DNA of 64,000 nucleotides, from positions 91,151 through 155,150 of the forward strand of contig CAZMHV010000003.1 of assembly GCA_964566225.1 (NCBI GenBank). The letters are read 5' to 3'. Every line of letters starts with the position of its first letter. The first letter of the stretch is position 1. The position numbers and the translations under genes were made by a program. The notes beneath the pieces are model-generated. The model searched no databases, was not told where the DNA came from, and saw nothing but the letters and a program-made list of their open reading frames with translations. Shown here piece by piece: positions 413-60,233 of this stretch. Source of the stretch: an uncultured Gammaproteobacteria bacterium. Lineage in GTDB: Bacteria > Patescibacteriota > Patescibacteriia > Magasanikbacterales > UBA922.

Positions 413-1102
413 ATGGTTGAACTCAAGCTTCAACAATTTTCCGGTCCACTCGATTTGCTTTTGAATTTGATTGAAGAACAAAAACTTCCGATTACTGAAC
501 TTTCTATTTCTGCGGTTACAGAGCAATATCTTGAATACCTCACTTCGCTTGAACAAGAAAGTCCAGATGAAATTGCAGACTTTCTCGTTGTTGCCAGTCG
601 TATTTTGCTCATGAAAGCCAAGGCAATTTTGCCAATGTTTTTGCCCGAAGAAGAAAGTGGACCATCGCTTGAAGATCAACTGCGCATTTACAAAAAGTTT
701 GTGGAAGCCAGTCGAGTGCTCAACAAAAAATGGCTCGGGCCACTGCGTTCATTTTTTCGTTTGGAACCAGTTCGCAAAGCAGAAGGATTTGTGCCACCAG
801 AAAATGCAACCACCAAATCAATGCACAAGTCCATGCTGAACTTGGTGTCCCGCCTCAAACCACCAAAACCTTTGCCACAAATTGAAATGGATAAAACCGT
901 TTCTGTGAAAGAAGTGATTGAACGCATCAAAGACCTGCTCAAAAATCACAAACAATTTGATTTTCATAAATCTCTCAAAGAACGTGAAAACAAAACAGAA
1001 GTTATCTTGGGATTTCTCGCCTTACTTGAACTCGTGAAACAACAACTCGTCCACCTTGATCAACAATCTCATTTTGGAGATATCATGGTGAGAAAAGTGT
1101 AG
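413..1102 (+). CDS. scpA: Segregation and condensation protein A (kleisin ScpA)
   Basis: N-terminus FSGPLDLLLNLIEEQKLPITELSISAVTEQYLEYL matches the conserved ScpA start. Length is 229 aa. Confidence 0.8.
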   Translation: MVELKLQQFSGPLDLLLNLIEEQKLPITELSISAVTEQYLEYLTSLEQESPDEIADFLVVASRILLMKAKAILPMFLPEEESGPSLEDQLRIYKKFVEASRVLNKKWLGPLRSFFRLEPVRKAEGFVPPENATTKSMHKSMLNLVSRLKPPKPLPQIEMDKTVSVKEVIERIKDLLKNHKQFDFHKSLKERENKTEVILGFLALLELVKQQLVHLDQQSHFGDIMVRKV

Positions 1103-1129: not shown

Positions 1130-1302
1130 GTGGGAATACTTTTCTTTTTTCATTTTTTGATATAGGTCACCATATTTGCTTCGCTCGTTCGGAAGAGAAA
1201 ATAAATTTTCTCTTCTCTCACTCGCTTGCAAATCACCACCCTCCGCGAGGGCGGCGGTCGTAGACCCCGTTTCAAAAAATGAAAAAAGAAAAGTATTCCC
1301 AC
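1130..1302. repeat. Nested palindromic element, copy 1. It has 31-bp perfect outer inverted repeats (1130-1160 and 1272-1302) around a ~111-nt core with internal hairpins.
   Basis: Left arm gggaatacttttcttttttcattttttga is the exact reverse complement of the right arm tcaaaaaatgaaaaaagaaaagtattccc. The core contains gaagagaaaat/attttctcttc and ccctc-cgc-gaggg inner inverted repeats. It shares the motif TACTTTTCTTTTTT with the element at 7299-7443. Confidence 0.7.
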
Positions 1303-1318
1303 GATATTTTCCGCACAT

Positions 1319-1870
1319 ATGTCTCTCATTTCAAAAATCGAATCCATCCTCTTTGTCGCCAGCAAACCCCTCAGCATCTCAACCCTCGCCAAATCCCTCG
1401 AAAAAAACGAAGTGGAAGTAGAAGAAGCTGTGGAGACTCTCCGCATGAAATACAATCACGAAGAATCTGGCATTCATCTTTTGCTCGATGGAAAAAATAT
1501 TCAGTTTATCACCAATCCAGAAAACGGAGAACTCATCCGTGGATTTCTCAAGCAAGAAATTGCTGGTGAACTCACCAAAGCACAACTCGAAACCCTTACC
1601 GTTATTGGTTACCGCGGTCCAGTGTCACGCAGTGAAATTGAACAAATTCGTGGCATGAACTGTTCGGTGATTTTGCGTAACCTTATGATGCGTGGTTTGA
1701 TTGAAGAACAGTCTCATGATACACTGGTACCACTGTATACACTCTCTTTTGAAGCACTGAGTCATTTGGGTATTCACTCGGTTGAAGAACTCCCTGAATA
1801 CGAAACTCTGCATGCTCATGAATATATTCAAGCAGCCATTGCTCCGGCTCAAGAGAACGTAGAAAGTTAA
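1319..1870 (+). CDS. scpB: Segregation and condensation protein B (ScpB)
   Basis: IESILFVASKPLSISTLAKSL...LTKAQLETLTVIGYRGPVSRSEIEQIRGMNCSVILRNLMMRGLIEE matches the ScpB winged-helix pattern. Confidence 0.8.
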   Translation: MSLISKIESILFVASKPLSISTLAKSLEKNEVEVEEAVETLRMKYNHEESGIHLLLDGKNIQFITNPENGELIRGFLKQEIAGELTKAQLETLTVIGYRGPVSRSEIEQIRGMNCSVILRNLMMRGLIEEQSHDTLVPLYTLSFEALSHLGIHSVEELPEYETLHAHEYIQAAIAPAQENVES

Positions 1871-1895
1871 AAGTTAAACTTTAGATTTTTTCTCC

Positions 1896-2936
1896 ATGCT
1901 TTTCAACTTCATCACCCCACCAGATCAAGATCCTTCTACCAAGTGGCGCAATCTTTTTGCTGTTGTGGTCGTTGTTTTGGGTGTTGGCTTTACGGTTGGC
2001 CCCAAAATTGGTCTTGATAAACCGGTGCTCGCGGCATCAAATAAAATTTTACCCAAAATTGTTCCTTCGTATAAACCACACAACGTTATTGGTGGAGACA
2101 TTACTGTAGAACCTCCTCGTCCACTTCCGCCACCACCACCGGTGCCGATGCTTGTAGGTGAACTCACCAGTTCCTCGGCTTTTTCGGCCAAAGGAATTTT
2201 TGTTAAAGATCTGGCGAGTAACAAAGTATTGTATGCCAAAAATGAATATGAACCAAGACCTTTGGCAAGTATTACCAAACTCATGAGTACATTGGTTTTA
2301 CTCGAACGTCCCATTGACTGGACCGCTACCAGTACTGCGGTAGAAGGAGATTTGGCAGATAACCATGTATATGCCGGAGAGTCAATGACTCTCGAAGATT
2401 TTTGGAATGCCGCACTGATTGCTTCATCAAATCGTTCTGTAGTCACTTTGGTCAAAGCTACTGGGTGGACCGAAGAACAATTTGTGGAACGCATGAATCA
2501 AAAAGCACTTGAACTTGGCATGACGGGCACACATTTTTTTGAACCTACGGGGCTTGATGAAAGTAATATTTCTACAGCATCGGATGTGGCATTACTTTTG
2601 GATGAAGCTGTGAAAAATGAAAAAATCTCTCGGGCCATGCTTGAAAAAGAATATAATTTGGATCTTATTGGTGTCAAAGCACCTCGTCATATTTGGAGTA
2701 CCAATTGGCTCTTGCTTGGCTGGGTACCACAAAATACATTTACCATTCTCGGTGGCAAAACAGGCTACATTCCAGCGGCTGGTTACAACTTTGCCATGAA
2801 GGTAAAAAATGATGCGGGTCGAGAATTGTCTGTGATTATTCTTGGCGCTGATGTGCACGAAGAACGTTTTACCGAAGCTCGAGATGTGGCTGATTCGGTG
2901 TACAAGGCATATCAATGGCCAGAACAAAATAAATAA
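1896..2936 (+). CDS. D-alanyl-D-alanine carboxypeptidase (serine peptidase S11, PBP5-like) with an N-terminal membrane anchor
   Basis: SxxK motif (LASITKLMS), SxN motif (ASSNRS), and an N-terminal hydrophobic stretch. Confidence 0.75.
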   Translation: MLFNFITPPDQDPSTKWRNLFAVVVVVLGVGFTVGPKIGLDKPVLAASNKILPKIVPSYKPHNVIGGDITVEPPRPLPPPPPVPMLVGELTSSSAFSAKGIFVKDLASNKVLYAKNEYEPRPLASITKLMSTLVLLERPIDWTATSTAVEGDLADNHVYAGESMTLEDFWNAALIASSNRSVVTLVKATGWTEEQFVERMNQKALELGMTGTHFFEPTGLDESNISTASDVALLLDEAVKNEKISRAMLEKEYNLDLIGVKAPRHIWSTNWLLLGWVPQNTFTILGGKTGYIPAAGYNFAMKVKNDAGRELSVIILGADVHEERFTEARDVADSVYKAYQWPEQNK

Positions 2937-2940
2937 AACA

Positions 2941-2971
2941 AAAATCCGACTCAAAAAAGTCGGATTTTTTT
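2941..2971. terminator. Bidirectional rho-independent terminator hairpin
   Basis: aaaatccgac-tcaaaaaa-gtcggattttttt is a GC stem flanked by A-run and T-run. It lies between the carboxypeptidase gene and the antisense tRNA. Confidence 0.6.
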
Positions 2972-2974
2972 ATG

Positions 2975-3058
2975 TGCCGCGAAAGGGGGTCGAACCCTTA
3001 TGACCTTGCGGTCGCAGGATTTTGAGTCCTGTGCGTCTGCCAGTTCCGCCATCGCGGC
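2975..3058 (-). tRNA. tRNA-Leu (anticodon CAA), long variable arm
   Basis: Reverse complement folds as acceptor GCCGCGA/UCGCGGC, anticodon stem CAGGA/UCCUG with loop CUCAAAA, a 15-nt variable arm and T-arm AAGGG-UUCGACC-CCCUU. Discriminator is A. Confidence 0.8.
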
Positions 3059-3146
3059 AAGCGATTTATCGGCTTTATTATAGGTTATATTGCAGATCTT
3101 GTCAATTCCATGGTATAATTGGATATCTTTAGTGTATTCTTTTCAC

Positions 3147-3914
3147 ATGTCCAAAGTTATTTCTGTCGTGAACCAAAAAGGTGGGGTCGGCAAGACCACT
3201 ACCACCATCAATGTTGCTGCCTATTTAGCTGAAATGGGCAAATTTGTGCTGCTTGTAGATATGGATCCACAAGCCAACGCCACCAGTGGTGTCGGGGTGT
3301 CCAAAGATACGTTGGAACATGGTCTCTATGAGGCTCTTTCCAAAGAAAAACGACTCAGTGATATTATCCACAACACCTCTCACCAGGGTCTGCGGGTTGC
3401 GCCTGCTACTGGTAATTTGGCTGGTGCCAGTATTGAACTCGTAGATGTTGATCGTCGTGAACATCAGTTACATGATTTACTTGAAGAAGTAAAACATGCG
3501 TATGATTATATTGTTATTGATTGCCCGCCTTCACTTGGACTCCTCACCATCAATAGTTTGGTGGCGGCTGATGAAATTTTGATTCCAGTACAGGCAGAGT
3601 ATTATGCACTAGAAGGTTTAGGCCAGTTGCTTCAGACTATTGGGCTTATTCAGGAACATCTCAAACCAAGCTTACAAATTTTGGGAGCAGTGATTACCAT
3701 GTTTGATAAACGTACTCGTTTATCCGAAGATGTCCTTCAGGAATTGTATAAATACTTTCCGAATAATATTTTTCGTTCTGTTATTCCTCGTACGGTTCGC
3801 TTGGCTGAAGCACCAAGTTTTGGTAAAACTATTTTGCAATATGAACCTTCTGGAAAAGGAGCAAAATCATACGAGAAGTTGGCTCGAGAAATTTTGGATA
3901 AACATTCACTCTAA
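3147..3914 (+). CDS. parA: Chromosome partitioning ATPase ParA/Soj
   Basis: Deviant Walker A KGGVGKTTTTINVAAYLA. Start chosen at the MSKVISVVNQKGG ATG; the track ORF begins upstream at 3090. Confidence 0.85.
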   Translation: MSKVISVVNQKGGVGKTTTTINVAAYLAEMGKFVLLVDMDPQANATSGVGVSKDTLEHGLYEALSKEKRLSDIIHNTSHQGLRVAPATGNLAGASIELVDVDRREHQLHDLLEEVKHAYDYIVIDCPPSLGLLTINSLVAADEILIPVQAEYYALEGLGQLLQTIGLIQEHLKPSLQILGAVITMFDKRTRLSEDVLQELYKYFPNNIFRSVIPRTVRLAEAPSFGKTILQYEPSGKGAKSYEKLAREILDKHSL

Positions 3915-3923
3915 TTTTCAATT

Positions 3924-4832
3924 ATGGCTCTTGGTAAAGGCTTAGGCTCACTTATTCCAACCAAAAAGGTAGAAACCACCACATCACAAGAAGAAATTTC
4001 TCGTGACTCTGTGAGTGTCCCTGCGGTTTCACCCAAACAAAGTTCAATCAAAAAAGAAGATCAGGTCCTGCATATTCCACTCTCTGAAATTACTCCAAAT
4101 CCAGATCAACCTCGTAAACATTTTTCACATAGTGACTTAGAAGATTTAATTGCTTCTATTAAGCTTCATGGAGTTCTCCAACCAATTTTGGTTTCTGAGA
4201 AATTAACCGGTGGGTATGAACTTATTGCGGGTGAACGACGTTTTCGAGCTTCTGAAATGGCAGGCGTTGCTACTGTTCCTGCACTTATCAAAAAAACCAA
4301 TAATCAAGAACGATTGGAGATTGCTCTGATTGAAAATATTCAGCGTCAAGATTTGAATCCTATTGAAGAAGCTTTTGCGTATCGTCGTCTTACTGAAGAA
4401 TTTGGTTTGAAGCAAGATGAAGTGGCACAGCGTGTGGGCAAAAGTCGTCCTGCGGTAACCAATACTATTCGTTTACTTGATCTGCCAGAAGTTATTCAGC
4501 GTGCTTTGATGGATGGAACACTCAGTACCAGTAAAGCACGTGCTATTTTGAGTTTGCGTTCACAAGATGAACAAATAAAAATGTTTCAAAACATGATGGG
4601 TGGGCATGTAACCGTACGTGATGTTGAAACTGCCGTTGCCCTGCAGGGGAGTCGGTCACGTAAAGGTTCTGTACGTCGTGATCCACAAATTTACGAAGTT
4701 GAAAAACAGTTAGAAGACAGGTTTGGAACCAAAGTAAAAATTACCCAAAAGGGTGAACGAGGGACGGTTGTACTGGAGTATTATTCCAAAGATGAACTCA
4801 AAAAAATGGTTGATGATTTGCTTCAAAGATAA
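3924..4832 (+). CDS. parB: Chromosome partitioning protein ParB/Spo0J
   Basis: ParB box LQPILVS...GGYELIAGERRFRASEMAGVATVPALI, immediately downstream of parA. Confidence 0.85.
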   Translation: MALGKGLGSLIPTKKVETTTSQEEISRDSVSVPAVSPKQSSIKKEDQVLHIPLSEITPNPDQPRKHFSHSDLEDLIASIKLHGVLQPILVSEKLTGGYELIAGERRFRASEMAGVATVPALIKKTNNQERLEIALIENIQRQDLNPIEEAFAYRRLTEEFGLKQDEVAQRVGKSRPAVTNTIRLLDLPEVIQRALMDGTLSTSKARAILSLRSQDEQIKMFQNMMGGHVTVRDVETAVALQGSRSRKGSVRRDPQIYEVEKQLEDRFGTKVKITQKGERGTVVLEYYSKDELKKMVDDLLQR

Positions 4833-4839
4833 AATAGAC

Positions 4840-4873
4840 ACAAAAAAACCACCGAGAAAAGGTGGTTTTTTTA
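4840..4873. terminator. Bidirectional rho-independent terminator between parB (+) and rel (-)
   Basis: aaaaaaaccacc-gagaaaa-ggtggttttttt. Confidence 0.6.
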
Positions 4874-4880
4874 TATGAGT

Positions 4881-6359
4881 TTATTTGGGTAAAACAGATT
4901 TAATCCAGTTGGGAAGTCTGGAAGATTTTTGGGATTGTTTAATATGAGTTTTGGCGGTATGTGTTTTCACAAATTCTGACCAGTCTTGACTCGGGCCTTT
5001 GCGGTTTTTATCAATTATAATTTCTACTACATCACCATTTTTGAGAGTGGTGCCGAGGTTCACCATTTTATCATTTACGAGTGCACCGGTACATTTATTG
5101 CCAATTTCACTGTGAATGTGATATGCAAAATCCACAGGTGTGGCACCTTCGGGGAGATCAATCACATCCCCCTTGGGAGTAAAGACAAAAATTCGTGTTT
5201 GCAAAAAGTCGACTTTGATTTCTTCAAGGTCAGAAAGTTTGTTCAAAATATCTCGTTGAATTTCTGCCAATTCTTTGGCCCATTGAATTTCACGACTTGG
5301 TCTGCGTGATCCATTTTCGTCATAGTGCCAGTGTGCCGCAATACCGTATTCTGCTTCTTCGTGCATGGCCACGGTACGAATTTGAAACTCTACCACCTCA
5401 CCATCGTCACCAAATACTGTGGTGTGGAGTGATTGGTAGCCATTGGGCTTTGGTTGTGAAATATAATCTTTGATACGTCCTTTGAGAGGTTTCCATACTT
5501 TGTGCAAAATCCCAAGACAGGCATAACAATCTGCCACGGTGGGGACCAAAATACGAATGGCAAAAAGGTCATAAATTTTGGTAACTTCGTTTTCTTTGCG
5601 TTTGAGTTTTTGAAAAAAACTATAGAGTCGTTTATTTCTTCCTTGAATAGATGCTACCGGAACTCCAGCTGCTTTGAGTTCCTCGAGGGCTTTGTGTTCG
5701 AGTTTGATAAAGTATTCTTCTTTGCCAGAGAGTTTTTCATCACGCATTTTTTTGATGCGTTGGTATTCGGCTGGGTAGACATATTGAAAGGCCAAATCTT
5801 CGAGTTCTCCTTTCATTTCGTCCATGCCCAAACGACTGGCAATGGGTGCATAAATTTCTAAACTTTCAAGGGCAATGCGGTATTGTTTGGGTGGGGGGAG
5901 TGACCCCAAGGTTTGCAAGTTATGAATGCGGTCAGCAAATTTAATAATCATCACGCGCACATCTTCGGCCATGGCCACAAACATTTTGCGTAGATTTTCA
6001 ATGTAGCGTTCTACACCACGGTATTTGAGTTTCCCAAGTTTGGTAATTCCGCGAACCATGGATTCAATTTCACTGCCAAAATTTTTGCCAATTTCTTCGA
6101 GTGTGACGTCTGTATCCTCAGGAACATCATGGAGCAGTGTTGCTGCCACAATAACCGGATCAATGCGCATGTTGGCCAAAATATGAGCTGCAGCGAGTGG
6201 GTGTACAATGTATGGTTCACCAGATTTACGAAATTGTCCGTTGTGGGCTTTTTCGGCAAAGTCGTAGGCGAGGCGCACCAAATCAAGGTCTGCCTTTTTG
6301 TCATAGGTAGCAATTTGGGTGAGCAATGTCTCGATAGTTTGGTTGGGAGTATTATACAT
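4881..6359 (-). CDS. rel: Short bifunctional (p)ppGpp synthetase/hydrolase (RelA/SpoT homolog). HD, synthetase and TGS domains are present; C-terminal regulatory domains are absent.
   Basis: HD motif (VHPLAAAHILANM...LLHDVPEDT), synthetase region (RIKDYISQPKPNGYQSLHTTV), and a TGS-like C-terminus (IFVFTPKGDVIDLPEGATPVDFAYHIH). Only 492 aa. Confidence 0.85.
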   Translation of the reverse strand: MYNTPNQTIETLLTQIATYDKKADLDLVRLAYDFAEKAHNGQFRKSGEPYIVHPLAAAHILANMRIDPVIVAATLLHDVPEDTDVTLEEIGKNFGSEIESMVRGITKLGKLKYRGVERYIENLRKMFVAMAEDVRVMIIKFADRIHNLQTLGSLPPPKQYRIALESLEIYAPIASRLGMDEMKGELEDLAFQYVYPAEYQRIKKMRDEKLSGKEEYFIKLEHKALEELKAAGVPVASIQGRNKRLYSFFQKLKRKENEVTKIYDLFAIRILVPTVADCYACLGILHKVWKPLKGRIKDYISQPKPNGYQSLHTTVFGDDGEVVEFQIRTVAMHEEAEYGIAAHWHYDENGSRRPSREIQWAKELAEIQRDILNKLSDLEEIKVDFLQTRIFVFTPKGDVIDLPEGATPVDFAYHIHSEIGNKCTGALVNDKMVNLGTTLKNGDVVEIIIDKNRKGPSQDWSEFVKTHTAKTHIKQSQKSSRLPNWIKSVLPK

Positions 6360-6517
6360 ACAGAAAGAAAGTCACCTTCACATTGTAGAGCATTTTAGGA
6401 TTTTTGCAAGTTTTGATTTTTGTGAATTTACAGCAAAACACCTGTGCAAAGTGTATTTGCTCTGTAAAATTATTTACTAATTTAAGCTAATTTTAGCCAA
6501 TTTGTAGAGTTTTTCTG

Positions 6518-6546
6518 TTGACAAAGTTGTCAAAAAGGAGTATAAT
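6518..6546 (+). promoter_or_regulatory. Consensus sigma70-type promoter (TTGACA-N17-TATAAT) with a palindromic -35 region, upstream of the island-A gene
   Basis: ttgacaaagttgtcaaaaaggagtataat. The sequence ttgacaa-ag-ttgtcaa is itself an inverted repeat. Confidence 0.5.
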
Positions 6547-6662
6547 GGCCTATTAAAATTCAAAATAGCCAAAAGAGTCTTGTGAGGAGTTTTTTGGGTG
6601 TTTTGGAGTGTTTAATTGTTTTCACCTTTTTTTCGCGAATGTGTTCGCGATGGAGTACTGAC

Positions 6663-7178
6663 ATGGGTTTTTTTCTCATGGTGCCGTTTTCGCTTTTCGG
6701 CATGGGCGTGGCGGTGGTTCTGGGCCTGGTTCTCTTGGCCTGGATTGGTGAGGCGGTGCTGACCGCCTTGATCTGGGCTTTCTCGATCGGGCTTGGCCTT
6801 GCGGGCTTGGTGTTTCTGTTTCGGTGGATTTACCGGGACAAAACGCCTTGGCATCTGCCGCAGGTCCAGCCTCCACCACCGTCTCCCCCGGAACCGTTTC
6901 CGCGAGTTCCTCGGGGCAGTTCACCCTCAATGGTCATCATCGAGGGGGTGCAGATTGTTGTGCAGTCAGGGGCGAATCTGCACATTCATTTGCATGCCGG
7001 CGGCGGGGAGGATCCACCAAACGTTCGTGTCGTCCCCTCACAGTCTCGTCCGGTTCGCCCGCAGGGTGAACCTGCGAAACCTTCGCCGAAAATCATCCCC
7101 CCACAGAACGGTCGTGGCCCCACCTTTGGGGACTGGAACGACCGCTATGGTGGGGGTGACGACGACGAAGACGACTGA
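6663..7178 (+). CDS. GC-rich hypothetical protein: two predicted TM helices, a Pro-rich middle (QPPPPSPPEPFP) and an acidic tail (GGGDDDEDD). Alternative in-frame starts lie at 6582 (GTG) and 6639.
   Basis: Long ORF with high third-position G/C in an AT-rich genome. A GGAG sits 7 nt before the 6663 ATG. Hydrophobic N-terminus GMGVAVVLGLVLLAWIGEAVLTALIWAFSIGLGLAGLVFLF. Confidence 0.5.
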   Translation: MGFFLMVPFSLFGMGVAVVLGLVLLAWIGEAVLTALIWAFSIGLGLAGLVFLFRWIYRDKTPWHLPQVQPPPPSPPEPFPRVPRGSSPSMVIIEGVQIVVQSGANLHIHLHAGGGEDPPNVRVVPSQSRPVRPQGEPAKPSPKIIPPQNGRGPTFGDWNDRYGGGDDDEDD

Positions 7179-7298
7179 GCTTCAACACCAAACGGCACGG
7201 GCAGCAGAGGTTTACGAAAACTCTTGCAGCTGCCCGTGCCGAGAAAGAAAAATAAACCCCCTCACAGTGGAATACTGGAGGGGATTTTTTATTTCATC

Positions 7299-7443
7299 GA
7301 GGAGAGAATTTGTACTTTTCTTTTTTGTTGGCTGCGGGATCGCTCTCATGAAGGTCCCTTCGCCCTGACGGGACTCGGGGGACCTTCATGTATTCGCTAA
7401 GTCCTCGCTCAACAAAAAAGAAAAGTACAAATTCTCTCCTCTC
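7299..7443. repeat. Nested palindromic element, copy 2. It has 32-bp perfect outer inverted repeats around a ~79-nt G+C-rich core that holds its own 12-bp inverted repeat.
   Basis: Outer arms gaggagagaatttgtacttttcttttttgttg and caacaaaaaagaaaagtacaaattctctcctc. Inner arms catgaaggtccc and gggaccttcatg. Shares TACTTTTCTTTTTT with copy 1. Lies between the convergent island-A gene and topA. Confidence 0.7.
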
Positions 7444-7463
7444 ATCAATTTTTTTAATTAAGT

Positions 7464-9782
7464 TTATTCTTCGTCAGTTTCTTTCCCTTTCTTTCCTTTT
7501 GCCTTGGTAACTTTTTTTCCTCCGCGTTTCCAGCCACCTTTTTTGGTAGGTGCTTCGTCAAGAAGTTTGGTGCAGGTTTCGAGGTCGAGTGAAGTTGGTT
7601 CTGTGTCTTTGGGGATTCGGGCATTTCGTTTGCCGTCGGTAATGTATGGTCCATAGCGACCGATTTTGACAATTACGTCACTGCCAGGAAATGTTTTGAG
7701 AAGTGATGCTGCTTGTTTTTCTTGGGCTTCCAAAATAATTTCTTTGGCGCGTGCAAAGTCAACGGTGTATGGGTCATCATTTTTTATACTGTAGTATTTG
7801 CTTCCTACTTTTACGTATGGACCAAAACGTCCAATGCCCACAATCATGTCATGGCCTTCTTCGTCTTGGCCAACATTTTTGGGAAGTTCCAAAAGTACCA
7901 AAGCTTGTTCGAGTGTAATACTTTCTGCACTCAATGTTTTTGGGATAGAAGCAAACACAGGTTTTTCCTCATCGTCTTTACTTCCTTTTTGCACAAATGG
8001 TCCAAAGCGGCCAATGCGCACAGAGATTGGTTTTTGAGATTTGGGATCAATGCCAAGTTCACGGGCTGATACAACAGATTCTTTGGAGAGTGCTTCACCT
8101 TTTTGTACAATGGATTCGTGAAATGGGTGATAGAAGGTAGCGATAATTGGTTGCCACTGTTCTTTGCCTTCCGCAATATCATCCAAATTTTCTTCCATTT
8201 GTGCTGTGAATGCGTAGTCAACAATGCTGGTGAAATGATCGACCAGTAAATCGTTTACGATAAACGCAATGTCTTTTGGTTTGAAACGTTTGTTGTCGTC
8301 GCGTTCTACATATTTATCTTCAATATTTGCCAGTGTTGGTGCGTATGTAGAAGGACGGCCAATGCCAAATTCTTCCATGGCTTTGACAATGGTAGCATCA
8401 GAGTATCGTGCAGGTGGTTCAGTAAAGTGTTGTTCTGGTTTGAGTTCATGACAATTTACGGTCTGTCCCTCTTTGAGTTCAGGCAACATTTCTTCTTTCA
8501 TGGCTTCTGGATACAGGGCAAGCCAACCTGGGAAAATCATAGATTGTCCTGTGGCGCGGAAGGTATAGTTGTTGTTTGATGTAATATCAAGAGTCGTTTT
8601 GTTGAGACGAGCTTCAGTCATTTGTGTCGCAAGTGTTCGTTTCCAAATGAGTGTATACAGTTTGAGTTGTTTGGGGTCAAGATAATTTTCCAAAGATTCT
8701 GGAGTGCGGGTAGGGTCAGTGGGGCGGATAGCTTCGTGTGCTTCTTGCGCGCCTTTACTTTTGGTTTTGAATTTTCGTGCAGAAGCGAGTTCGTATTCTT
8801 TGCCATAGGTGTCGTGAATAAATTGTTTGGCTTCACCCAAAAATTTATCTGCCAAATTCATGGAGTCAGTACGCATGTAGGTAATAAGACCCACGTGGCC
8901 TGTGCCAATGTTTACACCTTCGTAGAGTTGCTGCGCCAAGACCATGGTTTGTTTGGATGAGTATCCTAGTTTTTGATTGGCACTTTGTTGGAGTGTAGAA
9001 GTGGTAAATGGAGCCGGTGGAGTTCGTTTGGCTTCTTTTTGTTCGATGGATGAAACAGAATAATTTGCACCCTTGAGTGAGTGTAACACTTCATCCATTT
9101 TTTCTTTGGTGCCAAGTTCAAATTTATCAAGTTTTTTTCCATTGTGTGCTTGCAGCATTGCTTTCACTTCGTTTTCATTTTTTTTATTTTCTGAAAACAA
9201 CCCTTCGAGTGTCCAATATTCTTCTGGTTTGAAGGCTTGAATTTCTCGTTCACGATCCACAATGAGGCGCACCGCCACAGATTGCACGCGTCCTGCCGAG
9301 AGTCCCCGGGCTACTTTTTTCCACAAAAATGGGGAGAGTTCGTAACCCACCAGGCGGTCCAAAATACGGCGGGCTTGTTGCGCGTCCACAAGTTTTTGGT
9401 CAATATGTCTGGGGTGTGCCAGGGCCTCTTCAATGGCGTGCTGCGTAATTTCGTGAAAGACAATGCGTTTGGCCTTCTCTGGGTCAACATCAAGAATTTG
9501 GGCCAGGTGCCAAGAAATAGCTTCTCCTTCGCGGTCCTCATCGGTTGCAAATATGACTTCAGTGGCTTTTTTGGCTAAATCTTTGAGTTTCTTTACTTGG
9601 GCGCTTTTGTCTTTACTAATAATATAGTGGGGTTCAAAGGTTCCACCATCAATATCTATGCCCATTTTACTCTTTGGCAGGTCGCGTAGGTGGCCAAAAG
9701 AAGACTCCACGGCATAGGCTTTGCCGAGGAATTTGGAGATAGTTTTGGCTTTGGTAGGGGATTCTACGATGACAAGTTTCAT
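7464..9782 (-). CDS. topA: DNA topoisomerase I
   Basis: Toprim N-terminus MKLVIVESPTKAKTISKFLGK...ATDEDREGEAISWHL. Length 772 aa with a Lys-rich C-terminus. Confidence 0.9.
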   Translation of the reverse strand: MKLVIVESPTKAKTISKFLGKAYAVESSFGHLRDLPKSKMGIDIDGGTFEPHYIISKDKSAQVKKLKDLAKKATEVIFATDEDREGEAISWHLAQILDVDPEKAKRIVFHEITQHAIEEALAHPRHIDQKLVDAQQARRILDRLVGYELSPFLWKKVARGLSAGRVQSVAVRLIVDREREIQAFKPEEYWTLEGLFSENKKNENEVKAMLQAHNGKKLDKFELGTKEKMDEVLHSLKGANYSVSSIEQKEAKRTPPAPFTTSTLQQSANQKLGYSSKQTMVLAQQLYEGVNIGTGHVGLITYMRTDSMNLADKFLGEAKQFIHDTYGKEYELASARKFKTKSKGAQEAHEAIRPTDPTRTPESLENYLDPKQLKLYTLIWKRTLATQMTEARLNKTTLDITSNNNYTFRATGQSMIFPGWLALYPEAMKEEMLPELKEGQTVNCHELKPEQHFTEPPARYSDATIVKAMEEFGIGRPSTYAPTLANIEDKYVERDDNKRFKPKDIAFIVNDLLVDHFTSIVDYAFTAQMEENLDDIAEGKEQWQPIIATFYHPFHESIVQKGEALSKESVVSARELGIDPKSQKPISVRIGRFGPFVQKGSKDDEEKPVFASIPKTLSAESITLEQALVLLELPKNVGQDEEGHDMIVGIGRFGPYVKVGSKYYSIKNDDPYTVDFARAKEIILEAQEKQAASLLKTFPGSDVIVKIGRYGPYITDGKRNARIPKDTEPTSLDLETCTKLLDEAPTKKGGWKRGGKKVTKAKGKKGKETDEE

Positions 9783-11845: not shown

Positions 11846-12520
11846 TTATTCTGGTCGCCATCCACCGCTGATTTCGAGGTTGGCACCGTTTATATGAGTA
11901 CTCTCATTTGAGACCAAGAATAACACGCCCCGGGCAATATCGTCAAATGGAATCACAGGCACCTCGGGACCAGGCTTTACACCCGTTGGAAGCACTCCTG
12001 GGGAGATCATATTAATGGTAACACCAGTATTTTTGTGCTCTGCGGCCAAAGATTTGGTGAGCATGAGGAGCGATGTTTTGGCCATGTAGTAGGGGGTCGT
12101 ATTGGGGCGAGCCGTAATTTGGTCACAGCCAACCGAACCAAAGTGAACAATGCGGCCAAACTTTTTTTTGCGCATGTTTGGCAGTACGGTGCTGTCGCAG
12201 TACCATGCTGTCACGAGGTTATTGTGGAGTACGTCAACCAGTTCTTGTGATTTTGTTTTTGAAAGTGGTTTAAAAATAAATCCACCAACCGTGTTGATGA
12301 GAATGTCGATGTGGGGGAGTGTGACAAACATTTTTTTGACTTCAGGTAAATTTGTGAGATCTGCTTGAACGGTTTGCGCATGTAATTTTTTGGCAAGAAG
12401 TTTGGTTTGCTTTTCACTTTTGTAGTAATGCAAAATAACGTTGTATCCTGCTGCATGCAATGTTTGTGCAATGGTTTTGCCAAGTCGTTGACCAGCTCCG
12501 GCAATAAATACGGTTTTCAT
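11846..12520 (-). CDS. Short-chain dehydrogenase/reductase (SDR) family oxidoreductase
   Basis: Rossmann motif IAGAGQRLGK, catalytic YxxxK (YYMAKTSLLMLTKSLA), and PG motif ISPGVLPT. Confidence 0.75.
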   Translation of the reverse strand: MKTVFIAGAGQRLGKTIAQTLHAAGYNVILHYYKSEKQTKLLAKKLHAQTVQADLTNLPEVKKMFVTLPHIDILINTVGGFIFKPLSKTKSQELVDVLHNNLVTAWYCDSTVLPNMRKKKFGRIVHFGSVGCDQITARPNTTPYYMAKTSLLMLTKSLAAEHKNTGVTINMISPGVLPTGVKPGPEVPVIPFDDIARGVLFLVSNESTHINGANLEISGGWRPE

Positions 12521-12524
12521 AGTG

Positions 12525-13625
12525 TTAGGTTCCAAGAATATACATCATACCTCCGATATTTTTTACCTTTCCCTGAATTTCCATGAGTGTGAGTGTACTA
12601 TTTACCACGCGATTTTCCAATTTTGAATTTTTGATTATTTCATCAATGTGAAGTGGTTCTTGTGACAGAATTTCTAAAATCTTTGTTTCTTCATGAGTGT
12701 CTCCAACAATTTTTTTGGTTTCTATCTTTTCTGTGACAATACCAAGTATATCCAAAACATCTTGTGCATTTGTGACCAGGCGTGCCCCCATCTTTAAAAG
12801 GTTGTTTGTCCCAACCGATGTGAGTGAGGTAATGTTTTGTGGCACGGCAAATACTTCTCGATTGGCATCAAGTGCACACTGTGCAGTGATGAGTGATCCT
12901 GAGTCCTGACTGGCTTCAATTACTAAAGTGCCTACGCACATTCCCGCAATGATTCTATTTCGTTTTGGAAAAGAGTAATTCTGGGGCGATGTAAATGGTG
13001 GGTATTCAGAAATAACAGCCCCACCACTTTCAATAATGGCTTCACCAAGTTTTTGGTGAATGTTGGGCGCCACAGAATTTTTATCCACTCCTCCTGCGAG
13101 TACGGCAATGGTATTTCCTTTGGCTTTGATGGTTGCATGGTGGGCAAATCCATCAACTCCGAGTGCCAGGCCACTCACAATAGTAATGCCTGCCTCAGCA
13201 AGACGTGGAATAATCATATCAACCACTTGTTTGCCATAGGGAGATATTTTTCGTGGGCCGACCACTCCGAGCCAAGGTTTGGGCTGCTCGAGTTTTCCCC
13301 GAACAAAAAGACAAAATGGAGGATCATAAATTTGTTTGAGGAGTAGCGGATATTCATCGTCATGTATGGTAATGCAATGAATTCCTTCTTTATCTAATGT
13401 TTTTTGAATTTGTTTTTCATCAATATTTTGTCTCCATTCCACAAATTCGTTGATGAATTCATCTGGCCAGAGAGTTTGCTTGAGCTGCACTGCTGTGGCA
13501 CTCCATGCATTATCAAGAGAAGAAAAGACCTGCAAGAGGTCTTTGTATTTTTTGTAGCTGATTTTAAGAAAGTAAGAGAGAAGAATTTCTTTTTGCATAC
13601 CGGGAATATGGAATACTTTTTTCAA
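12525..13625 (-). CDS. dprA: DNA processing protein DprA (Smf)
   Basis: DprA Rossmann-like core GxDGxAH (SGLALGVDGFAHHATIKA)...VLAGGVD...VISEYPP. Confidence 0.8.
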   Translation of the reverse strand: MKKVFHIPGMQKEILLSYFLKISYKKYKDLLQVFSSLDNAWSATAVQLKQTLWPDEFINEFVEWRQNIDEKQIQKTLDKEGIHCITIHDDEYPLLLKQIYDPPFCLFVRGKLEQPKPWLGVVGPRKISPYGKQVVDMIIPRLAEAGITIVSGLALGVDGFAHHATIKAKGNTIAVLAGGVDKNSVAPNIHQKLGEAIIESGGAVISEYPPFTSPQNYSFPKRNRIIAGMCVGTLVIEASQDSGSLITAQCALDANREVFAVPQNITSLTSVGTNNLLKMGARLVTNAQDVLDILGIVTEKIETKKIVGDTHEETKILEILSQEPLHIDEIIKNSKLENRVVNSTLTLMEIQGKVKNIGGMMYILGT

Positions 13626-18877: not shown

Positions 18878-21109
18878 ATGAATCTCTTGACTCCAATTCA
18901 GGACCTCAACAGAGTAGGGAAGGTACTCTCTGGTCGTCTCCACCTCCTCGGCATTGAAACTGTCCAAGATTTGTTGTATTACTTTCCATTCCGCTACGAA
19001 GATTTTAGTAAAACCTTTATTATTGATGAGCTTCAAGAAGGCCAGCAGGTTACGATCAAAGGAACCATTGAAACCATTGCGAGCAAGCGCAGTCCTCGCA
19101 AGCGTATGATCATCACCGAAGCCATTGTGGCGGACGAAAGTGGGCGTTTGCGGGTCACCTGGTTTGGTCAGCCTTTTATTTCCAAGGTTTTGAAAGCAGG
19201 GGATGTGGTGTATTTGTCTGGCAAAATAACGGGCAATGCATTTGGGCTCCAAATGGTTGGACCAAGTTATGAAAAAAGCAAAGAGACAGCACACACTCCC
19301 AAAGATATTTTTGATACGGACGAAACCGAAAATGTTGATGCCCTGACATCTTCTCCAACCACCACACATACGGCACGCATTGTGCCCATTTATCCACTTA
19401 CCGCAGGCATCACCGAAAAACAAATGCGTTTTCTCATGGCGCAAATTATTCCGATGGCTAAAGAAGTACCTGAATGGCTCCCTGACCAGATTCAAAATGC
19501 TGCACAGGTGATTTCACTTGGGCAGGCTTTGCAGCACATTCACTTTCCAGAAAATTTTGACCATGTAAAAGCGGCAGAAAAACGTTTAAAATTTGATGAA
19601 GTGTTTTTGCTGCAGCTGCGCGCCGAAATGATGCGACAAGAAATGAAGCGATCACGTGCACCACAAATTTCATTTCAAGAAAAATTGATCAAACAATTTG
19701 TTGGGTCGCTTCCATTTGAACTGACCAAAGATCAAAAAATTGCTGCCTGGGAAATTTTGCAGGACCTTGAAAAAACTGAACCCATGAATCGGCTGATTGA
19801 AGGAGATGTGGGGTCTGGCAAAACTGTGGTGGCAGCCATGTGTATGTACAACGCAGCATTGTGTGGATTTCAAAGTGTCATTTTGGTGCCCACAGAAGTT
19901 TTGGCATTTCAGCACTTTGAATCTTTGCAGAAAATTTTTGAAAAGTTTGATGTGAAGATTGGTATTTTGACCAGAAGTCGGGCTGAAACAAATGTTCTTC
20001 ATGATTTAAAAAATATTGAAACATCTTCAAAAACAAAAAATAAAAAAGTGTCATTTGCCGAACAAAAAAGAAATGTTCTGCAAAAAATGAAAAGTGGGGA
20101 AGTGCAGATTATGGTAGGAACCCATGCATTGCTTTCGGATGATGTTACATTTCAAAAACTTGGGCTGGTGGTAGTGGATGAACAGCACCGTTTTGGTGTG
20201 GAGCAACGCAAACAGATTCGTGAAAAGTCTGGAAACAAAAAGTTGACACCACACTTTTTGAGTATGACCGCCACGCCCATTCCTCGCACTTTTGCGCTCA
20301 CGCTCTATGGAGACTTGGATTTGTCAATTATTAAAACCAAACCCGCTGGACGCAAACCTATTATGACTCGTGTGGTAGAACCTCACAATCGTCAAAAGGC
20401 ATATGAATTTATTGAAAAGCAGGTGAAAGAGGGTAGACAAGTGTTTGTTATTTGTCCACTCATTGAACAAAAAGAAGAGACCGAAGAAGAAAAAACAAAA
20501 AATAAAAAACCAGAAGCATTTGCTTCTCCAACAGATGAAAAAAAATCAGTCATGGAGGAATATGAAAAATTATCCAAGGTTGTTTTTCCACATTTGAAAG
20601 TAGCTTTTTTGCATGGCAAAATGAAATCCCAAGAAAAAGATCTCGTGATGTCTGCCTTTGCACGAGGGGAAACAGATATTTTGGTTTCAACTTCTGTGGT
20701 GGAAGTAGGTGTGAATATTCCGAATGCAACGGTAATGATGATTGAAGGTGCTGAACGTTTTGGTTTGGCACAGCTGCATCAGTTTCGTGGACGTGTGGGG
20801 CGCAGTGATCACCAATCATATTGTTTTTTGTTTACGGATTCATTTTCAGACGCAGTTGCAGAACGTCTCAAATTTTTTGAAGAAACCCTTGATGGCTTTG
20901 CACTTGCTGAATATGATTTGCAAACTCGTGGACCAGGTGAAGTGTATGGCAAAACGCAAAGTGGTCTCATGAGTATGCGCTTGGCAACCATGCATGACAC
21001 TGATATAATACGCATGGCTCGCGATGTTGCTCGAGATATTGATTTTGCAGCCTTTCCAGTGCTTCGACAAAAAGTTGAAGCCTGGGAAAAACATATTCAC
21101 CTTGAATAA
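18878..21109 (+). CDS. recG: ATP-dependent DNA helicase RecG
   Basis: Wedge/OB N-terminus, helicase motif I GDVGSGKTVVA and motif II VVVDEQHRFGVEQR. Start chosen at MNLLTPIQDL. Confidence 0.85.
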   Translation: MNLLTPIQDLNRVGKVLSGRLHLLGIETVQDLLYYFPFRYEDFSKTFIIDELQEGQQVTIKGTIETIASKRSPRKRMIITEAIVADESGRLRVTWFGQPFISKVLKAGDVVYLSGKITGNAFGLQMVGPSYEKSKETAHTPKDIFDTDETENVDALTSSPTTTHTARIVPIYPLTAGITEKQMRFLMAQIIPMAKEVPEWLPDQIQNAAQVISLGQALQHIHFPENFDHVKAAEKRLKFDEVFLLQLRAEMMRQEMKRSRAPQISFQEKLIKQFVGSLPFELTKDQKIAAWEILQDLEKTEPMNRLIEGDVGSGKTVVAAMCMYNAALCGFQSVILVPTEVLAFQHFESLQKIFEKFDVKIGILTRSRAETNVLHDLKNIETSSKTKNKKVSFAEQKRNVLQKMKSGEVQIMVGTHALLSDDVTFQKLGLVVVDEQHRFGVEQRKQIREKSGNKKLTPHFLSMTATPIPRTFALTLYGDLDLSIIKTKPAGRKPIMTRVVEPHNRQKAYEFIEKQVKEGRQVFVICPLIEQKEETEEEKTKNKKPEAFASPTDEKKSVMEEYEKLSKVVFPHLKVAFLHGKMKSQEKDLVMSAFARGETDILVSTSVVEVGVNIPNATVMMIEGAERFGLAQLHQFRGRVGRSDHQSYCFLFTDSFSDAVAERLKFFEETLDGFALAEYDLQTRGPGEVYGKTQSGLMSMRLATMHDTDIIRMARDVARDIDFAAFPVLRQKVEAWEKHIHLE

Positions 21110-24967: not shown

Positions 24968-25048
24968 TGTAAACAAAAACCGCATCAGGATTCCTCCATT
25001 CTTGCAGAGTGAACAAATTCACTTTACAAGAATGGGCTGATGCGGTTT
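24968..25048. terminator. Long imperfect nested hairpin (~80 nt) at the guaB 3' end and the island-B boundary
   Basis: Outer 13-bp arms aaaaccgcatcag / ctgatgcggtttt. Inner near-perfect inverted repeat cattcttgcagagtgaa / ttcactttacaagaatg. Confidence 0.5.
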
Positions 25049-25129
25049 TTGAATACGCGCATGCCCGGCGTAGCAGCAGCGGGAATCTCCCGCCGCGCCG
25101 TGGGTGGTCGCCTGAGGCGACCGGTTGGC

Positions 25130-25399
25130 TCAGGCGGCCTTCGCGGCGATGGTGAGCGTCGGCTTCTGGGGCTTCGCGTACAGGCGCGTGCCCGCGTTGT
25201 TCGTGATGATCACGTTCAGGTTGTGATCCTTCGCGAACTCGGCCAGGCGAGTCCCCCCGTCGTGCGTGAGGGCCGTGTAGTGGTTGTCCCAGTTCGCCGG
25301 CTTGGGCAGCCCGATCCACTCATAGTCGAACACCAGGGCCGCGAGCTGTCGAGCATCCGGTCCGTTCACAATCACCGGGATCTTGCATGCAATGTTCAT
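25130..25399 (-). CDS. GC-rich small hypothetical protein (90 aa), possibly a gene fragment
   Basis: MNIACKIPVIVNGPDARQLAALVFDYEWIGLPKPANWDNHYTALTHDGGTRLAEF... A minus-strand promoter-like TTGATT-N16-TATACT lies ~60 nt upstream. Confidence 0.4.
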   Translation of the reverse strand: MNIACKIPVIVNGPDARQLAALVFDYEWIGLPKPANWDNHYTALTHDGGTRLAEFAKDHNLNVIITNNAGTRLYAKPQKPTLTIAAKAA

Positions 25400-25518
25400 T
25401 TTGTTCGCAGATCTTTCACTTACTTGGTTGACTTCACACGCATCTTGGATGCGCGCCGCTAGTATACTCTTTTCCCACAAAAAATCAAGGTTATTTGGCT
25501 TATTTATCCACAAAACAA

Positions 25519-25548
25519 AAAACACCCCGTTTAGGGGGTGTTTTTTGA
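25519..25548. terminator. Bidirectional terminator at the radA 3' end
   Basis: aaaaaacacccc-gttta-ggggtgtttttt. Confidence 0.55.
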
Positions 25549-25574
25549 TATATTTTATGCGAATTACGGATTCT

Positions 25575-26927
25575 CTATGTATGTTTAATAAGCTCAGCAA
25601 TATTTTGTACATTCACCACTTTCAACTTGGTGTCTTGTTTCAAGGCCCCTTTTACTGTGGTCAAAACTCGTTTCATCCCCAGTTGTTCACATTCTTTCAC
25701 TCGTTTTTCCAAAAATCTCACTGACCGAATTTCTCCTCCAAGTCCTACTTCACCAAAAACTGCGAGGTCATTGCCGAGGGCCTTGTCTTTGTATGCACTC
25801 GCCACAGCCAAGGCCACGGCCAAGTCCGCACCAGGTTCATCGGCCACAATTCCACCCACCACATTCACATGCACATCGTATTGTGATAAATTCAAATTGG
25901 CTCGCTTTTGCAAAACGGCAATGAGTACATGCAAACGATTCAAATCAAAACCACTGGCTTTTCGTACAGGGTAACCAAACACCGTTTTATTTACGAGTGC
26001 CTGAATTTCAACCAGCAGGGGACGTGAACCCTCAAGTAAGCAAGTAACCACACTCCCTGGCATGCTCTCACCACGTTCAGAGAGCAATCGTTCGGACGGA
26101 TTGATCACCTCGGCCAAGCCTTCACTATTCATTTCAAACATGCCAATTTCATCAGTCGATCCAAAACGATTTTTCACTGCACGCAAAATGCGAATGTCAT
26201 GGTAGCGATCTCCTTCAAGATACAAAACTGTATCGACCAAATGTTCGAGTGTTCTTGGCCCAGCCACAGATCCTTCTTTGGTCACATGTCCAATCAAAAT
26301 AATCGCAGTACCAGAAGATTTAGCCACTTCGAGGAGTTTTACCGCACAGGCACGAACCTGTGACACATTGCCTGCTTCACCTTCAATTTCATCAGAAAAA
26401 ATAGTTTGAATCGAGTCAATAATAGCAAGAGCGGGTTTGTGTTCAATGAGTGTGGCAATAATCGTTTCTACATTAGTTTCATTGGCAAGTTGAAGTGTAG
26501 GTTTTTGTACAGGCATCCGATCAGCACGGAGTTTAATTTGTTCTACCGACTCTTCACCAGAAATATACAAAGTTTTTTCAATGGCAGTGGCAATCTGCAA
26601 ACTCAAAGTTGATTTACCAATTCCTGGTTCACCACCAAGCAAAAGAAAACTCCCTGGCACAATGCCACCCCCGAGTACGCGGTCAAGTTCATGGTTTCCG
26701 GTCAAGATTCTTTTTACATCACCAGGCTGAATATCTGACAAAGAAACTATTTTCGCAGAGGCATGTTTGGCTCCACTGGCAGATGTGCCTGTTGCAACTT
26801 TGGCGTCTTTTTGCACAGCCTCCTGAGGAATGGTGCCCCATTTTCCACATTCCAAACATCGCCCAGCCCATTTTTGGTACTGTGCGCCACAATTGGTGCA
26901 TTCAAATATTTGTTGTATTTTGGCCAT
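25575..26927 (-). CDS. radA: DNA repair protein RadA (Sms)
   Basis: N-terminal zinc finger CTNCGAQYQKWAGRCLECGKWGT, RecA-like Walker A GEPGIGKST, and a Lon-like C-terminal domain. Confidence 0.9.
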   Translation of the reverse strand: MAKIQQIFECTNCGAQYQKWAGRCLECGKWGTIPQEAVQKDAKVATGTSASGAKHASAKIVSLSDIQPGDVKRILTGNHELDRVLGGGIVPGSFLLLGGEPGIGKSTLSLQIATAIEKTLYISGEESVEQIKLRADRMPVQKPTLQLANETNVETIIATLIEHKPALAIIDSIQTIFSDEIEGEAGNVSQVRACAVKLLEVAKSSGTAIILIGHVTKEGSVAGPRTLEHLVDTVLYLEGDRYHDIRILRAVKNRFGSTDEIGMFEMNSEGLAEVINPSERLLSERGESMPGSVVTCLLEGSRPLLVEIQALVNKTVFGYPVRKASGFDLNRLHVLIAVLQKRANLNLSQYDVHVNVVGGIVADEPGADLAVALAVASAYKDKALGNDLAVFGEVGLGGEIRSVRFLEKRVKECEQLGMKRVLTTVKGALKQDTKLKVVNVQNIAELIKHT

Positions 26928-48836: not shown

Positions 48837-49025
48837 TCACTTTTTTGGGGGTGTGCTCTTGGCGCTGTCTCCTCGGGGGGCTCCTTCTCGTGTGAAGAGG
48901 GCGATGACGACGATAAAGGCACCCAGGCACATGGCCGGGGCGTACTCCTTGATGTTGGGGGCAAAAATGGCTGGTCCGACAGTGGACACGAGCCCAATGA
49001 GAGCGAGAACCACGGAGTTATTCAT
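48837..49025 (-). CDS. GC-rich small two-TM protein (62 aa)
   Basis: MNNSVVLALIGLVSTVGPAIFAPNIKEYAPAMCLGAFIVVIALF..., on a ~220-bp G+C-rich patch. Confidence 0.35.
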   Translation of the reverse strand: MNNSVVLALIGLVSTVGPAIFAPNIKEYAPAMCLGAFIVVIALFTREGAPRGDSAKSTPPKK

Positions 49026-60206: not shown

Positions 60207-60233
60207 TTATACTTACAATATACGTATTTCTGT

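Follow-up and report, generated by a model that had tools for sequence, protein, structure and literature searches.

Nested palindromic elements in two short spacers of a Patescibacteria chromosome

Two long palindromes, in the scpA-scpB gap and beside topA

The DNA considered here (the window) is a 64,000-nucleotide stretch of contig CAZMHV010000003.1 in assembly GCA_964566225.1 (positions 91,151 to 155,150, forward strand), placed by its GTDB lineage among the Patescibacteriota (Magasanikbacterales, UBA922); homologues of its ScpB likewise put it in Patescibacteria (Candidate Phyla Radiation, CPR), near Magasanikbacteria. Its scpA and scpB genes are separated by a gap of 216 nt (1103-1318) containing a nested palindromic element of 173 bp, E1, and a second such element, E2, lies beside topA. 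E1 is a perfect 31-nt inverted repeat (1130-1160/1272-1302, 100% complementary) enclosing 111 nt, within which are two further hairpins: an 11-bp perfect stem, GAAGAGAAAAT/ATTTTCTCTTC (1192-1202/1205-1215), and CCCTC-CGC-GAGGG (1239-1251, with stem halves at 1239-1243 and 1247-1251). An original prediction, made from the letters of the window, had described the 31-bp repeat, a core of about 111 nt and both inner hairpins, with coordinates and sequences that are exact. The parts of the locus are listed here (coordinates are those of the window); L029 is a relative that carries an orthologue of E1, and the 14-mer is TACTTTTCTTTTTT, which is shared with E2.

413-1102, plus strand: scpA, the gene upstream of E1 (Pfam SMC_ScpA, E = 5e-22)
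1103-1129: left spacer, 27 nt, missing from the empty sites of relatives, 85% identical to L029
1130-1160: E1 left arm, GTGGGAATACTTTTCTTTTTTCATTTTTTGA, 31/31 complementary to 1272-1302, with the 14-mer at 1137-1150
1161-1232: 72-nt inner module found in this strain only, an imperfect hairpin absent from the L029 orthologue
1233-1271: conserved GC-rich core of 39 nt, TCACCACCCTCCGCGAGGGCGGCGGTCGTAGACCCCGTT, matching L029 at 39/39 positions, with a 1-nt insertion in the loop
1272-1302: E1 right arm, TCAAAAAATGAAAAAAGAAAAGTATTCCCAC, pairing with the left arm
1303-1318: right spacer, 16 nt, before the scpB ATG (read from the sequence)
1319-1870, plus strand: scpB, the gene downstream of E1 (Pfam SMC_ScpB, E = 2.6e-38)

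The motif TCACCA occurs twice around the 72-nt module (1167-1172 and 1233-1238), and no Shine-Dalgarno-like motif is visible in the right spacer.

E2, 143 bp in total, consists of a 79-nt core flanked by perfect 32-nt arms (7299-7330/7410-7441), and lies between two convergent genes, a hypothetical gene (6582-7178, plus strand) and topA (7464-9782, minus strand). The second element had originally been placed at 7299-7443; the arms and motif claimed for it are present, and its end is at 7441. Its parts and neighbours are as follows, L040 being a relative in which the site is empty.

7258-7294: hairpin, CCCCTC, a 14-nt loop and GAGGGG, then ATTTTTTATTT; also at the L040 empty site
7294-7298: TCATC, left copy of a direct repeat that is single at the L040 empty site
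7299-7330: E2 left arm, GAGGAGAGAATTTGTACTTTTCTTTTTTGTTG, 32/32 complementary to 7410-7441, with the 14-mer at 7313-7326
7331-7409: E2 core, 79 nt, GC-rich; its inner stem, CATGAAGGTCCC/GGGACCTTCATG, is perfect over 12 bp
7410-7441: E2 right arm, pairing with the left arm
7442-7446: TCATC, right copy of this repeat; stop codon of topA at 7464-7466, minus strand

These are the sole long perfect inverted repeats (arms at most 400 nt apart) in the 64 kb. Their arms pair solely with one another, no arm contains a hairpin of its own, and the only open reading frames (ORFs) inside either element are spurious overlapping ones. The predicted folding energy of E1 is -78.1 kcal/mol on the plus strand and -91.9 on the minus strand, and that of E2 is -86 to -89 kcal/mol, with a z of about -11 to -13 for these folds; the folding z of the two intergenic regions is about -11 to -18, other spacers being mostly at 0 to -5. 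Folding of E1, as had been proposed with the original prediction, thus gave strong structure (z about -11) and no Rfam family: Rfam at gathering and at relaxed thresholds, and ARAGORN, found nothing at E1 or E2. Two tRNAs alone reach the Rfam threshold in the window, and the relaxed scans returned only long-hairpin artefacts (plant miRNA precursor models, for example), far under threshold.

Neither element is an assembly artefact. An independent Logan assembly (L001, from SRR16481187) covers window positions 1272-7330, its ends falling exactly inside two arms, the right one of E1 and the left one of E2, because a k=31 graph must break at 31-bp perfect inverted repeats; a related strain's contig crosses its own version of E1 without a break. 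Perfect repeats of such length, which break k=31 assemblies as in L001, may fragment assemblies of these genomes, and the short contigs among close relatives may partly stem from similar elements.

One possibility, judged very unlikely, is that both elements work as ordinary terminators or attenuators of transcription, perhaps in both directions. E2 does lie between convergent genes, and on the plus strand each hairpin is followed by a short T run, but a terminator scan found 0 terminator-like sites in 900-1500 and 7100-7600, and the T and A tracts are within the stem rather than behind it, so that the ordinary intrinsic terminator, which the original prediction had named as its contrary case, fails. 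A terminator in E1 would also cut off scpB, a gene held within 9-15 nt of scpA in relatives, and E2 adjoins a conserved hairpin with an immediate T run that is present at the empty site too. That hairpin (7258-7294, between the hypothetical gene and topA) is itself a putative bidirectional terminator, left unflagged because the scan accepts loops of 3-8 nt and its loop is 14 nt.

Empty and occupied spacers in relatives

The scpA-scpB locus was compared in nine relatives (identities are those of ScpB to the ScpB of the window).

Window: ScpB 100%, gap 216 nt, E1
L029: ScpB 98%, gap 146 nt, E1-like
L041: ScpB 90%, gap 113 nt, a different, imperfect AT-rich inverted repeat whose left arm takes in the scpA stop region
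L042: ScpB 88%, gap 13 nt, empty
L038: ScpB 86%, gap 9 nt, empty
L030: ScpB 80%, gap 138 nt, an unrelated GC-rich nested palindrome
L036: ScpB 79%, gap 15 nt, empty
L031: ScpB 79%, gap 9 nt, empty
L037: ScpB 76%, gap 10 nt, empty
L039: ScpB 76%, contig begins within the gap, GC-rich palindrome as in L030

The site is empty (gap 9-15 nt) in 5/9 relatives and holds other palindromes in 3/9; a tenth contig, from JGI, has a gap of 130 nt. That scpA and scpB are normally adjacent, as originally supposed, is borne out by the spacing in L031, L036, L037, L038 and L042. Since the junction is 9-15 nt in these five, the 216-nt gap here is an insertion; the comparison shows an ancestral junction of that length, with E1 having entered before this strain and L029 split. 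On the ScpB tree no fewer than three independent gains, or gains plus losses, are needed in the spacer. The L041 inverted repeat (1579-1705) incorporates the scpA stop codon, which suggests a local inverted duplication there, and L037, empty at scpA-scpB, has a nested palindrome in its aspS-scpA spacer (758-869) and a 51-nt AT-rich inverted repeat in its scpB-dacA spacer (2177-2281).

At E2, the 5-bp direct repeat TCATC flanks the element, and the empty site of L040 has it once. In the window the sequence is tttCATC[E2]TCATCaat, that is, GGGGGattttttatttCATC[E2]TCATCaatttttttaattaagtTTA, and at the empty site it is ttttCATCagaataatTTA; in L040 the topA stop is followed by ...ttattctgatgaaaataaaaaat and then by the hairpin, in window orientation GGGGattttttattttCATCagaataatTTA. 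Because TCATC is doubled at E2 and single in L040, E2 is most simply read as an insertion, with the pattern expected from transposition. Presence/absence polymorphism at orthologous sites thus comprises five empty scpA-scpB sites and one empty E2 site, L040 and the empty scpA-scpB locus L038 being from the same sample. An inversion bounded by E2 was also considered for the hypothetical gene between relA and topA, and was rejected: L040 keeps its orientation without E2.

In L030 the E2-equivalent site (hairpin to topA stop) holds a copy of that genome's own GC-rich palindrome family, of which at least four copies lie in 14 kb (5784-5878, 6594-6698, 12598-12690 and a variant at 12099-12167), with another at L039:1-50. 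The sites in L030 are the aspS-scpA spacer, the scpA-scpB spacer and the E2-equivalent site, with the variant upstream of relA. Since this family is found at the same two spacers as E1 and E2, orthologous spacers hold different genome-specific palindromes in two lineages. Each half of a copy is a small hairpin, for example CCCTCTCC-TTGT-AGGAGAGGG, with compensatory variation between copies, and in these features the L030/L039 family looks more like REPINs than E1 and E2 do.

A drifting stem and an invariant core

Conservation in related genomes had been named as a check on the original prediction, and one relative, L029, has a conserved version of E1, in the same position and the same register. 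It is without the 72-nt module (window 1161-1232), itself a hairpin, which was either gained here or lost in L029; the nesting originally described is thus displayed directly, in one step, by this comparison. Between the two strains 10/31 stem positions differ (32%), nine of them changed on both arms and one from A-T to G.T, so that 31/31 positions pair in the window, and 30/31 in L029 with one wobble besides (100% of cells paired); slid controls are 52-63% paired, with one double change. Four-fold degenerate sites in the flanking scpA and scpB differ at 46/177 (26%), which is indistinguishable from the stem's 32% (p = 0.51), whereas the core has 0/39 substitutions (p = 5e-5 against four-fold sites, 0.0125 against the spacer flanks). 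Both rates come from a single pairwise comparison, on which the stem is neutral in sequence, with its pairing constrained or corrected, and the core is conserved.

The manner of the changes may say something about how pairing is kept, whether by template switching or by selection. All 62/62 arm pairs in the window are Watson-Crick, with no G.T; all six stem transversions are base-pair flips; and five adjacent stem positions (20-24) have switched together, TTCAT to AAGTA. Template switching is known to homogenise inverted repeats and to produce multi-base compensatory changes in one step (PMC8794818, PMC8604942, PMC7202029). Such quasipalindrome correction, copying a change in one arm onto the other, could have kept the arm symmetry at the DNA level; it fits because the pairs are nearly all Watson-Crick, the drift is at the neutral level, and five adjacent positions changed together.

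Another possibility is that E1 is mainly a functional structured RNA, either a small antisense RNA or a cis element in the scpAB transcript, with pairing kept by selection for RNA folding and a long stem of variable sequence presenting a GC-rich apical module that is conserved. This is doubtful; on its side are the unsubstituted core against 26% neutral divergence, nine compensated stem pairs together with one G.U, a folding z of about -11, and a core stem that lengthens to a continuous 10 bp, including two G.U pairs, when folded on the minus strand only. The strand signals disagree, however: the core hairpin is better on the minus strand, and the single stem wobble in L029 is a G.U on the plus strand. 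G.U pairs are essentially absent from 94 arm pairs, which would be unusual for selection at the RNA level alone, the loop accommodates a 72-nt insertion, the core of E2 is unrelated, there is no Rfam match, and the core conservation comes from one pairwise comparison. E1 is also missing from most close relatives, including L042 (ScpB 88%) and L038 (86%), and is therefore dispensable. In a more specific and distinctly improbable form, E1 would be a lineage-restricted hairpin device in the scpA/scpB spacer, setting the ratio of condensin subunits or yielding an antisense RNA; if so, the different palindromes that sister lineages have in the same two spacers would mean that such devices were recruited again and again in gene-dense genomes, beyond mere tolerance of insertions.

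The comparison with L029 also bears on whether E1 and E2 are invertons, in which a recombinase recognising the common arm motif would flip the cores and so switch expression of the neighbouring genes. Two loci with perfect repeats, a common motif and different enclosed segments do have the layout of an invertase regulon, and repeats would be expected to stay perfect if recombination acted within them, but the core is oriented alike in the window and L029, and the arm sequence differs between these close strains, which would break the recognition site. The cores are short GC-rich hairpins with no promoter-like site in them (nothing convincing as a promoter was found anywhere within E1 or E2), and no recombinase was found in the 64 kb. 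Invertons are accordingly considered extremely unlikely.

Origin of the arms and likeness to known elements

The 14-mer TACTTTTCTTTTTT occurs four times in the window, once in each arm of E1 and E2, where 0.19 occurrences are expected and 0/100 shuffles reach four. The E1 and E2 arms have in common 14 contiguous T-rich bases, or about 21 positions if a 4-nt indel is allowed; read directly, the extended similarity is GTGGGAA-TAC... against GAGAGAAtttgTAC... The original prediction had raised the chance that this is low-complexity similarity. Mononucleotide shuffles of the arm speak against that, with 0/20,000 giving the 14-mer match, but 9/3025 real 42-nt windows of the same 64 kb (0.3%), all of them A/T-rich coding sequence, match the E1 arm equally well. 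Kinship of E1 and E2 is probable because the arm match has a p of about 0.003, with identical architecture and arm length in addition; the link rests on low-complexity sequence.

A second shared motif, AGTGG(G)AATACT, is found twice in 64 kb (1129-1140 and 7266-7276; 0.03 expected), once at the E1 left arm's outer end and once within the loop of a hairpin that lies 23 nt upstream of E2. The loop of that hairpin (7258-7294) holds AGTGGAATACT, similar to the outer end of the E1 arm. The pair could go back to a shared origin, or be a post-hoc coincidence. Two further candidate family members within the window were rejected: a 17-mer match at 52095-52111 falls in lysine-rich coding sequence and is chance; the nested hairpin at 24969-25056 has the reversed layout (A tract first, T tract last) and does not share the motif. 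The latter lies downstream of guaB, between an A tract and a T tract, with outer arms of 20 nt (90%) and inner arms of 18 nt (89%); the fold of its spacer has a z of about -10.

Could the hairpins instead have been born in place, never mobile, through template-switch or inverted-duplication events in AT-rich spacers? The shared 14-mer would then be convergent low-complexity sequence resembling the terminator tails of the clade. Terminator-like palindromes in relatives end in TAC and a T tract, the same form as the 14-mer, as in these four:

L031 6968-7025: terminator-like palindrome with TAC and T tract
L036 7754-7792: the same
L030 8313-8364: the same
L039 2252-2309: the same

The E1 and E2 arms resemble such palindromes in swapped order, with the 3' half (stem, TAC, T tract) ahead of the 5' half (A tract, GTA, stem). 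The left arm of the L041 spacer repeat includes the scpA stop-codon region, a single template-switch event can make a perfect stem (PMC8794818), and AGTGG(G)AATACT ties the end of the E1 arm to the loop of the hairpin beside E2. A local source for the arms (the scpA 3' end, the topA 3' end or the adjacent hairpin) was nonetheless rejected as not above background, 54% and 35% of random windows scoring as high against the flanks as the E1 and E2 arms do. The GC-rich cores are likewise without a local source, E2 has a clean 5-bp duplication relative to the empty site, and the 14-mer match is rare among real windows (0.3%). An origin in place is therefore regarded as unlikely.

[quoted passage not shown] Its general part, insertion of palindromic DNA into short spacers with later nesting, as with MITE-like elements elsewhere (PMC10969869, PMC2229807), is well supported. 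E1 itself is best filed as a strain-specific nested palindromic insertion belonging to no named family. The original prediction had offered four natures (MITE-like, REP-like, structured RNA or protein-binding site); the choice is narrowed, and no single one of these is singled out.

By the comparison with relatives, an element with AT-rich arms of about 31 bp and a GC-rich hairpin core entered the scpA-scpB junction, and E2 lies between the topA stop codon and the terminator-like hairpin common to relatives, with the 5-bp duplication on its flanks; in the favoured explanation, the arms of the two would come from a common source, through transposition or copying between loci. If transcribed, E1 as part of the scpAB mRNA and E2 as part of the 3' untranslated region of topA, upstream of the neighbouring hairpin, would each form a duplex of at least 31 bp, with predicted energies of -78 to -92 kcal/mol. 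RNase III cleaves transcripts of Correia elements at their terminal inverted repeats (PMC2649163, PMC10969869), and RNase III-type cleavage here would separate expression of scpA from that of scpB or leave a protected 3' end. That the 39-nt core is invariant suggests selection on this part at least, for example as a determinant of binding or processing.

Among known systems, the Correia elements of Neisseria (CREE/NEMIS) are similar in being non-coding, of about 100-160 bp, with long terminal inverted repeats, intergenic or intra-operon sites and strain-variable presence. Correia elements have a TA target duplication. The flanks here are GA/GA for E1 and TCATC/TCATC for E2, not TA, Correia having been compared by description only, and the 5-bp duplication at E2 has no counterpart at E1. 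Correia elements are co-transcribed and fold into long hairpins (PMC2649163, PMC10969869), and they exist in many copies with a conserved repeat and core (PMC2649163), whereas here there are two copies with unrelated cores, and the E1 arms differ by 30% between strains with 98% identical ScpB.

REPs, the bacterial interspersed mosaic elements (BIMEs) built from them and REPINs are likewise extragenic palindromes able to form hairpins in single-stranded DNA or mRNA, and REP-type elements are found mostly after genes, between co-directional or convergent ones (PMC3116915, PMC3733652). A REPIN consists of two short inverted REP hairpins with an unpaired GTAG/CGTC tag, and has many near-identical copies and a RAYT gene (PMC3733652, PMC3116915); the arms of E1 and E2 contain no hairpins themselves, there is no unpaired tag, the copies are two, and there is no Y1 transposase match in the 64-kb window. 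A REP-type GTAG tag was considered and rejected, polarity and pairing being wrong: the arms start GTGG (window E1), GTAG (L029) and GAGG (E2), all paired in the stem, and the GTAG in the E1 core sits 3' of the hairpin and not at its 5' end.

Prokaryotic MITEs (ERIC, RUP and the pneumococcal terminator-like SPRITE) are also small and non-coding, with terminal inverted repeats, and other MITE features (PMC10969869, PMC2229807, PMC3049150) seen here are flanking duplication (at E2), presence/absence polymorphism, nesting and strong predicted RNA structure. They differ in that no multi-copy family with a common body, and no parent insertion sequence, was found for E1 and E2. Template-switch hairpins, finally, have the same perfect stems, multi-base compensatory changes and homogenised arms (PMC8794818, PMC8604942, PMC7202029), but template switching is a mutational mechanism and not an element family, and it leaves unexplained the flanking duplication at E2, the GC-rich cores and the conserved core of E1.

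Several points weigh against the favoured insertion reading. The chief of these is the invariant core, the main fact that insertion leaves unexplained: classical MITEs and REPINs have conserved arms, whereas here the core is conserved and the arms drift, a combination that points to function and not to junk, and from which the doubtful functional-RNA or binding-site reading draws its standing. The 14-mer that joins the two elements is T-rich low-complexity sequence, and the 64 kb hold only the two copies, in which 14 to about 21 nt of arm are common and between whose cores no similarity was found; the small family originally proposed stands on the shared arm 14-mer (p about 0.003), and is limited to two members with unrelated cores, with no further copies in the window or in the collections scanned. 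The E1 flanks have only GA in common, and no target-site duplication. The 59 ORFs of 90 aa or more in the 64-kb window gave no Pfam match to a transposase, Y1/RAYT protein, recombinase, invertase or reverse transcriptase; those identified by Pfam include the housekeeping genes aspS, scpAB, dacA, parAB, relA, topA, murein ligases, pheST, ftsW, murG and ftsZ. Transcription, RNase III cleavage and template switching enter the account as inferences rather than observations.

Searches elsewhere also go against that reading. Genome, viral and metagenome collections were scanned for the exact 14-mer pair with a gap of 76-136 nt, and no true further copies were found; nor did the core sequences match viral contigs, plasmid or phage records. 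The search for more copies through the 14-mer, as first suggested, yielded unrelated sequences only: one Bacteroidetes site in the genome collection, where the inverted repeat is not extended; one gut-phage locus in nine contigs of the viral collection; and, in the metagenome collection, that phage locus again, a eukaryotic MITE whose contig also holds U1 snRNA, and an L028 repeat reaching its contig end. All were rejected as relatives. Chance predicts such matches, since a single 14-mer within any long inverted repeat is enough to fit the pair pattern.

The gut-phage locus (for example L003:6544-6657) belongs to large gut-phage contigs (about 70-135 kb) and is present on more than 20 phage and metagenome contigs (among them L003-L012, L014-L017, L019, L020, L023, L024, L026 and L027). 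Its arms, CTACTTTTCTTTTTTG, are 16 nt long, and the 80-nt core between them contains a further hairpin; a 15-mer that it has in common with the E2 arm is taken as chance.

Patescibacteria genomes are small and gene-dense. In the literature searched, no description of MITE- or REP-like elements in Patescibacteria was found. In this one narrow clade the few intergenic spacers turn over fast, with at least three different palindromes in the same 10-15 nt spacer. A 31-bp stem that stays paired through neutral-level divergence offers a compact natural case for setting selection on RNA structure against template-switch homogenisation, and the conserved core, if functional, would add a new cis-element for the expression of condensin subunits.

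Other features were noted in passing. An unusually GC-rich stretch (about 25040-25620) follows the nested hairpin at 24969-25056, and GC-richer short segments or ORFs are apparent by eye in this genome of about 40% GC at 6582-7178, 25130-25612, about 48850-49025, about 57620-58388 and 61360-62119, some of them beside strongly structured spacers. Pfam gave no match for three of the GC-richer segments (6582-7178, 25130-25612 and 57711-58388); 61460-62119 matches His_Phos_1. A region of about 1 kb (20003-21023) has no ORF of at least 90 aa, nothing in Rfam and unremarkable folding. Perfect inverted repeats at contig ends, L030:1-160 (71 nt) and L028:1-267 (88 nt), are likely to be fold-back artefacts of assembly. 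A pyruvate phosphate dikinase-like gene lies in pieces across 58659-63346: ORFs 58659-60206 and 60234-61304 both end in a PEP-utilizers domain, and a PPDK_N ORF (62363-63346) lies beyond an oppositely oriented histidine-phosphatase gene.

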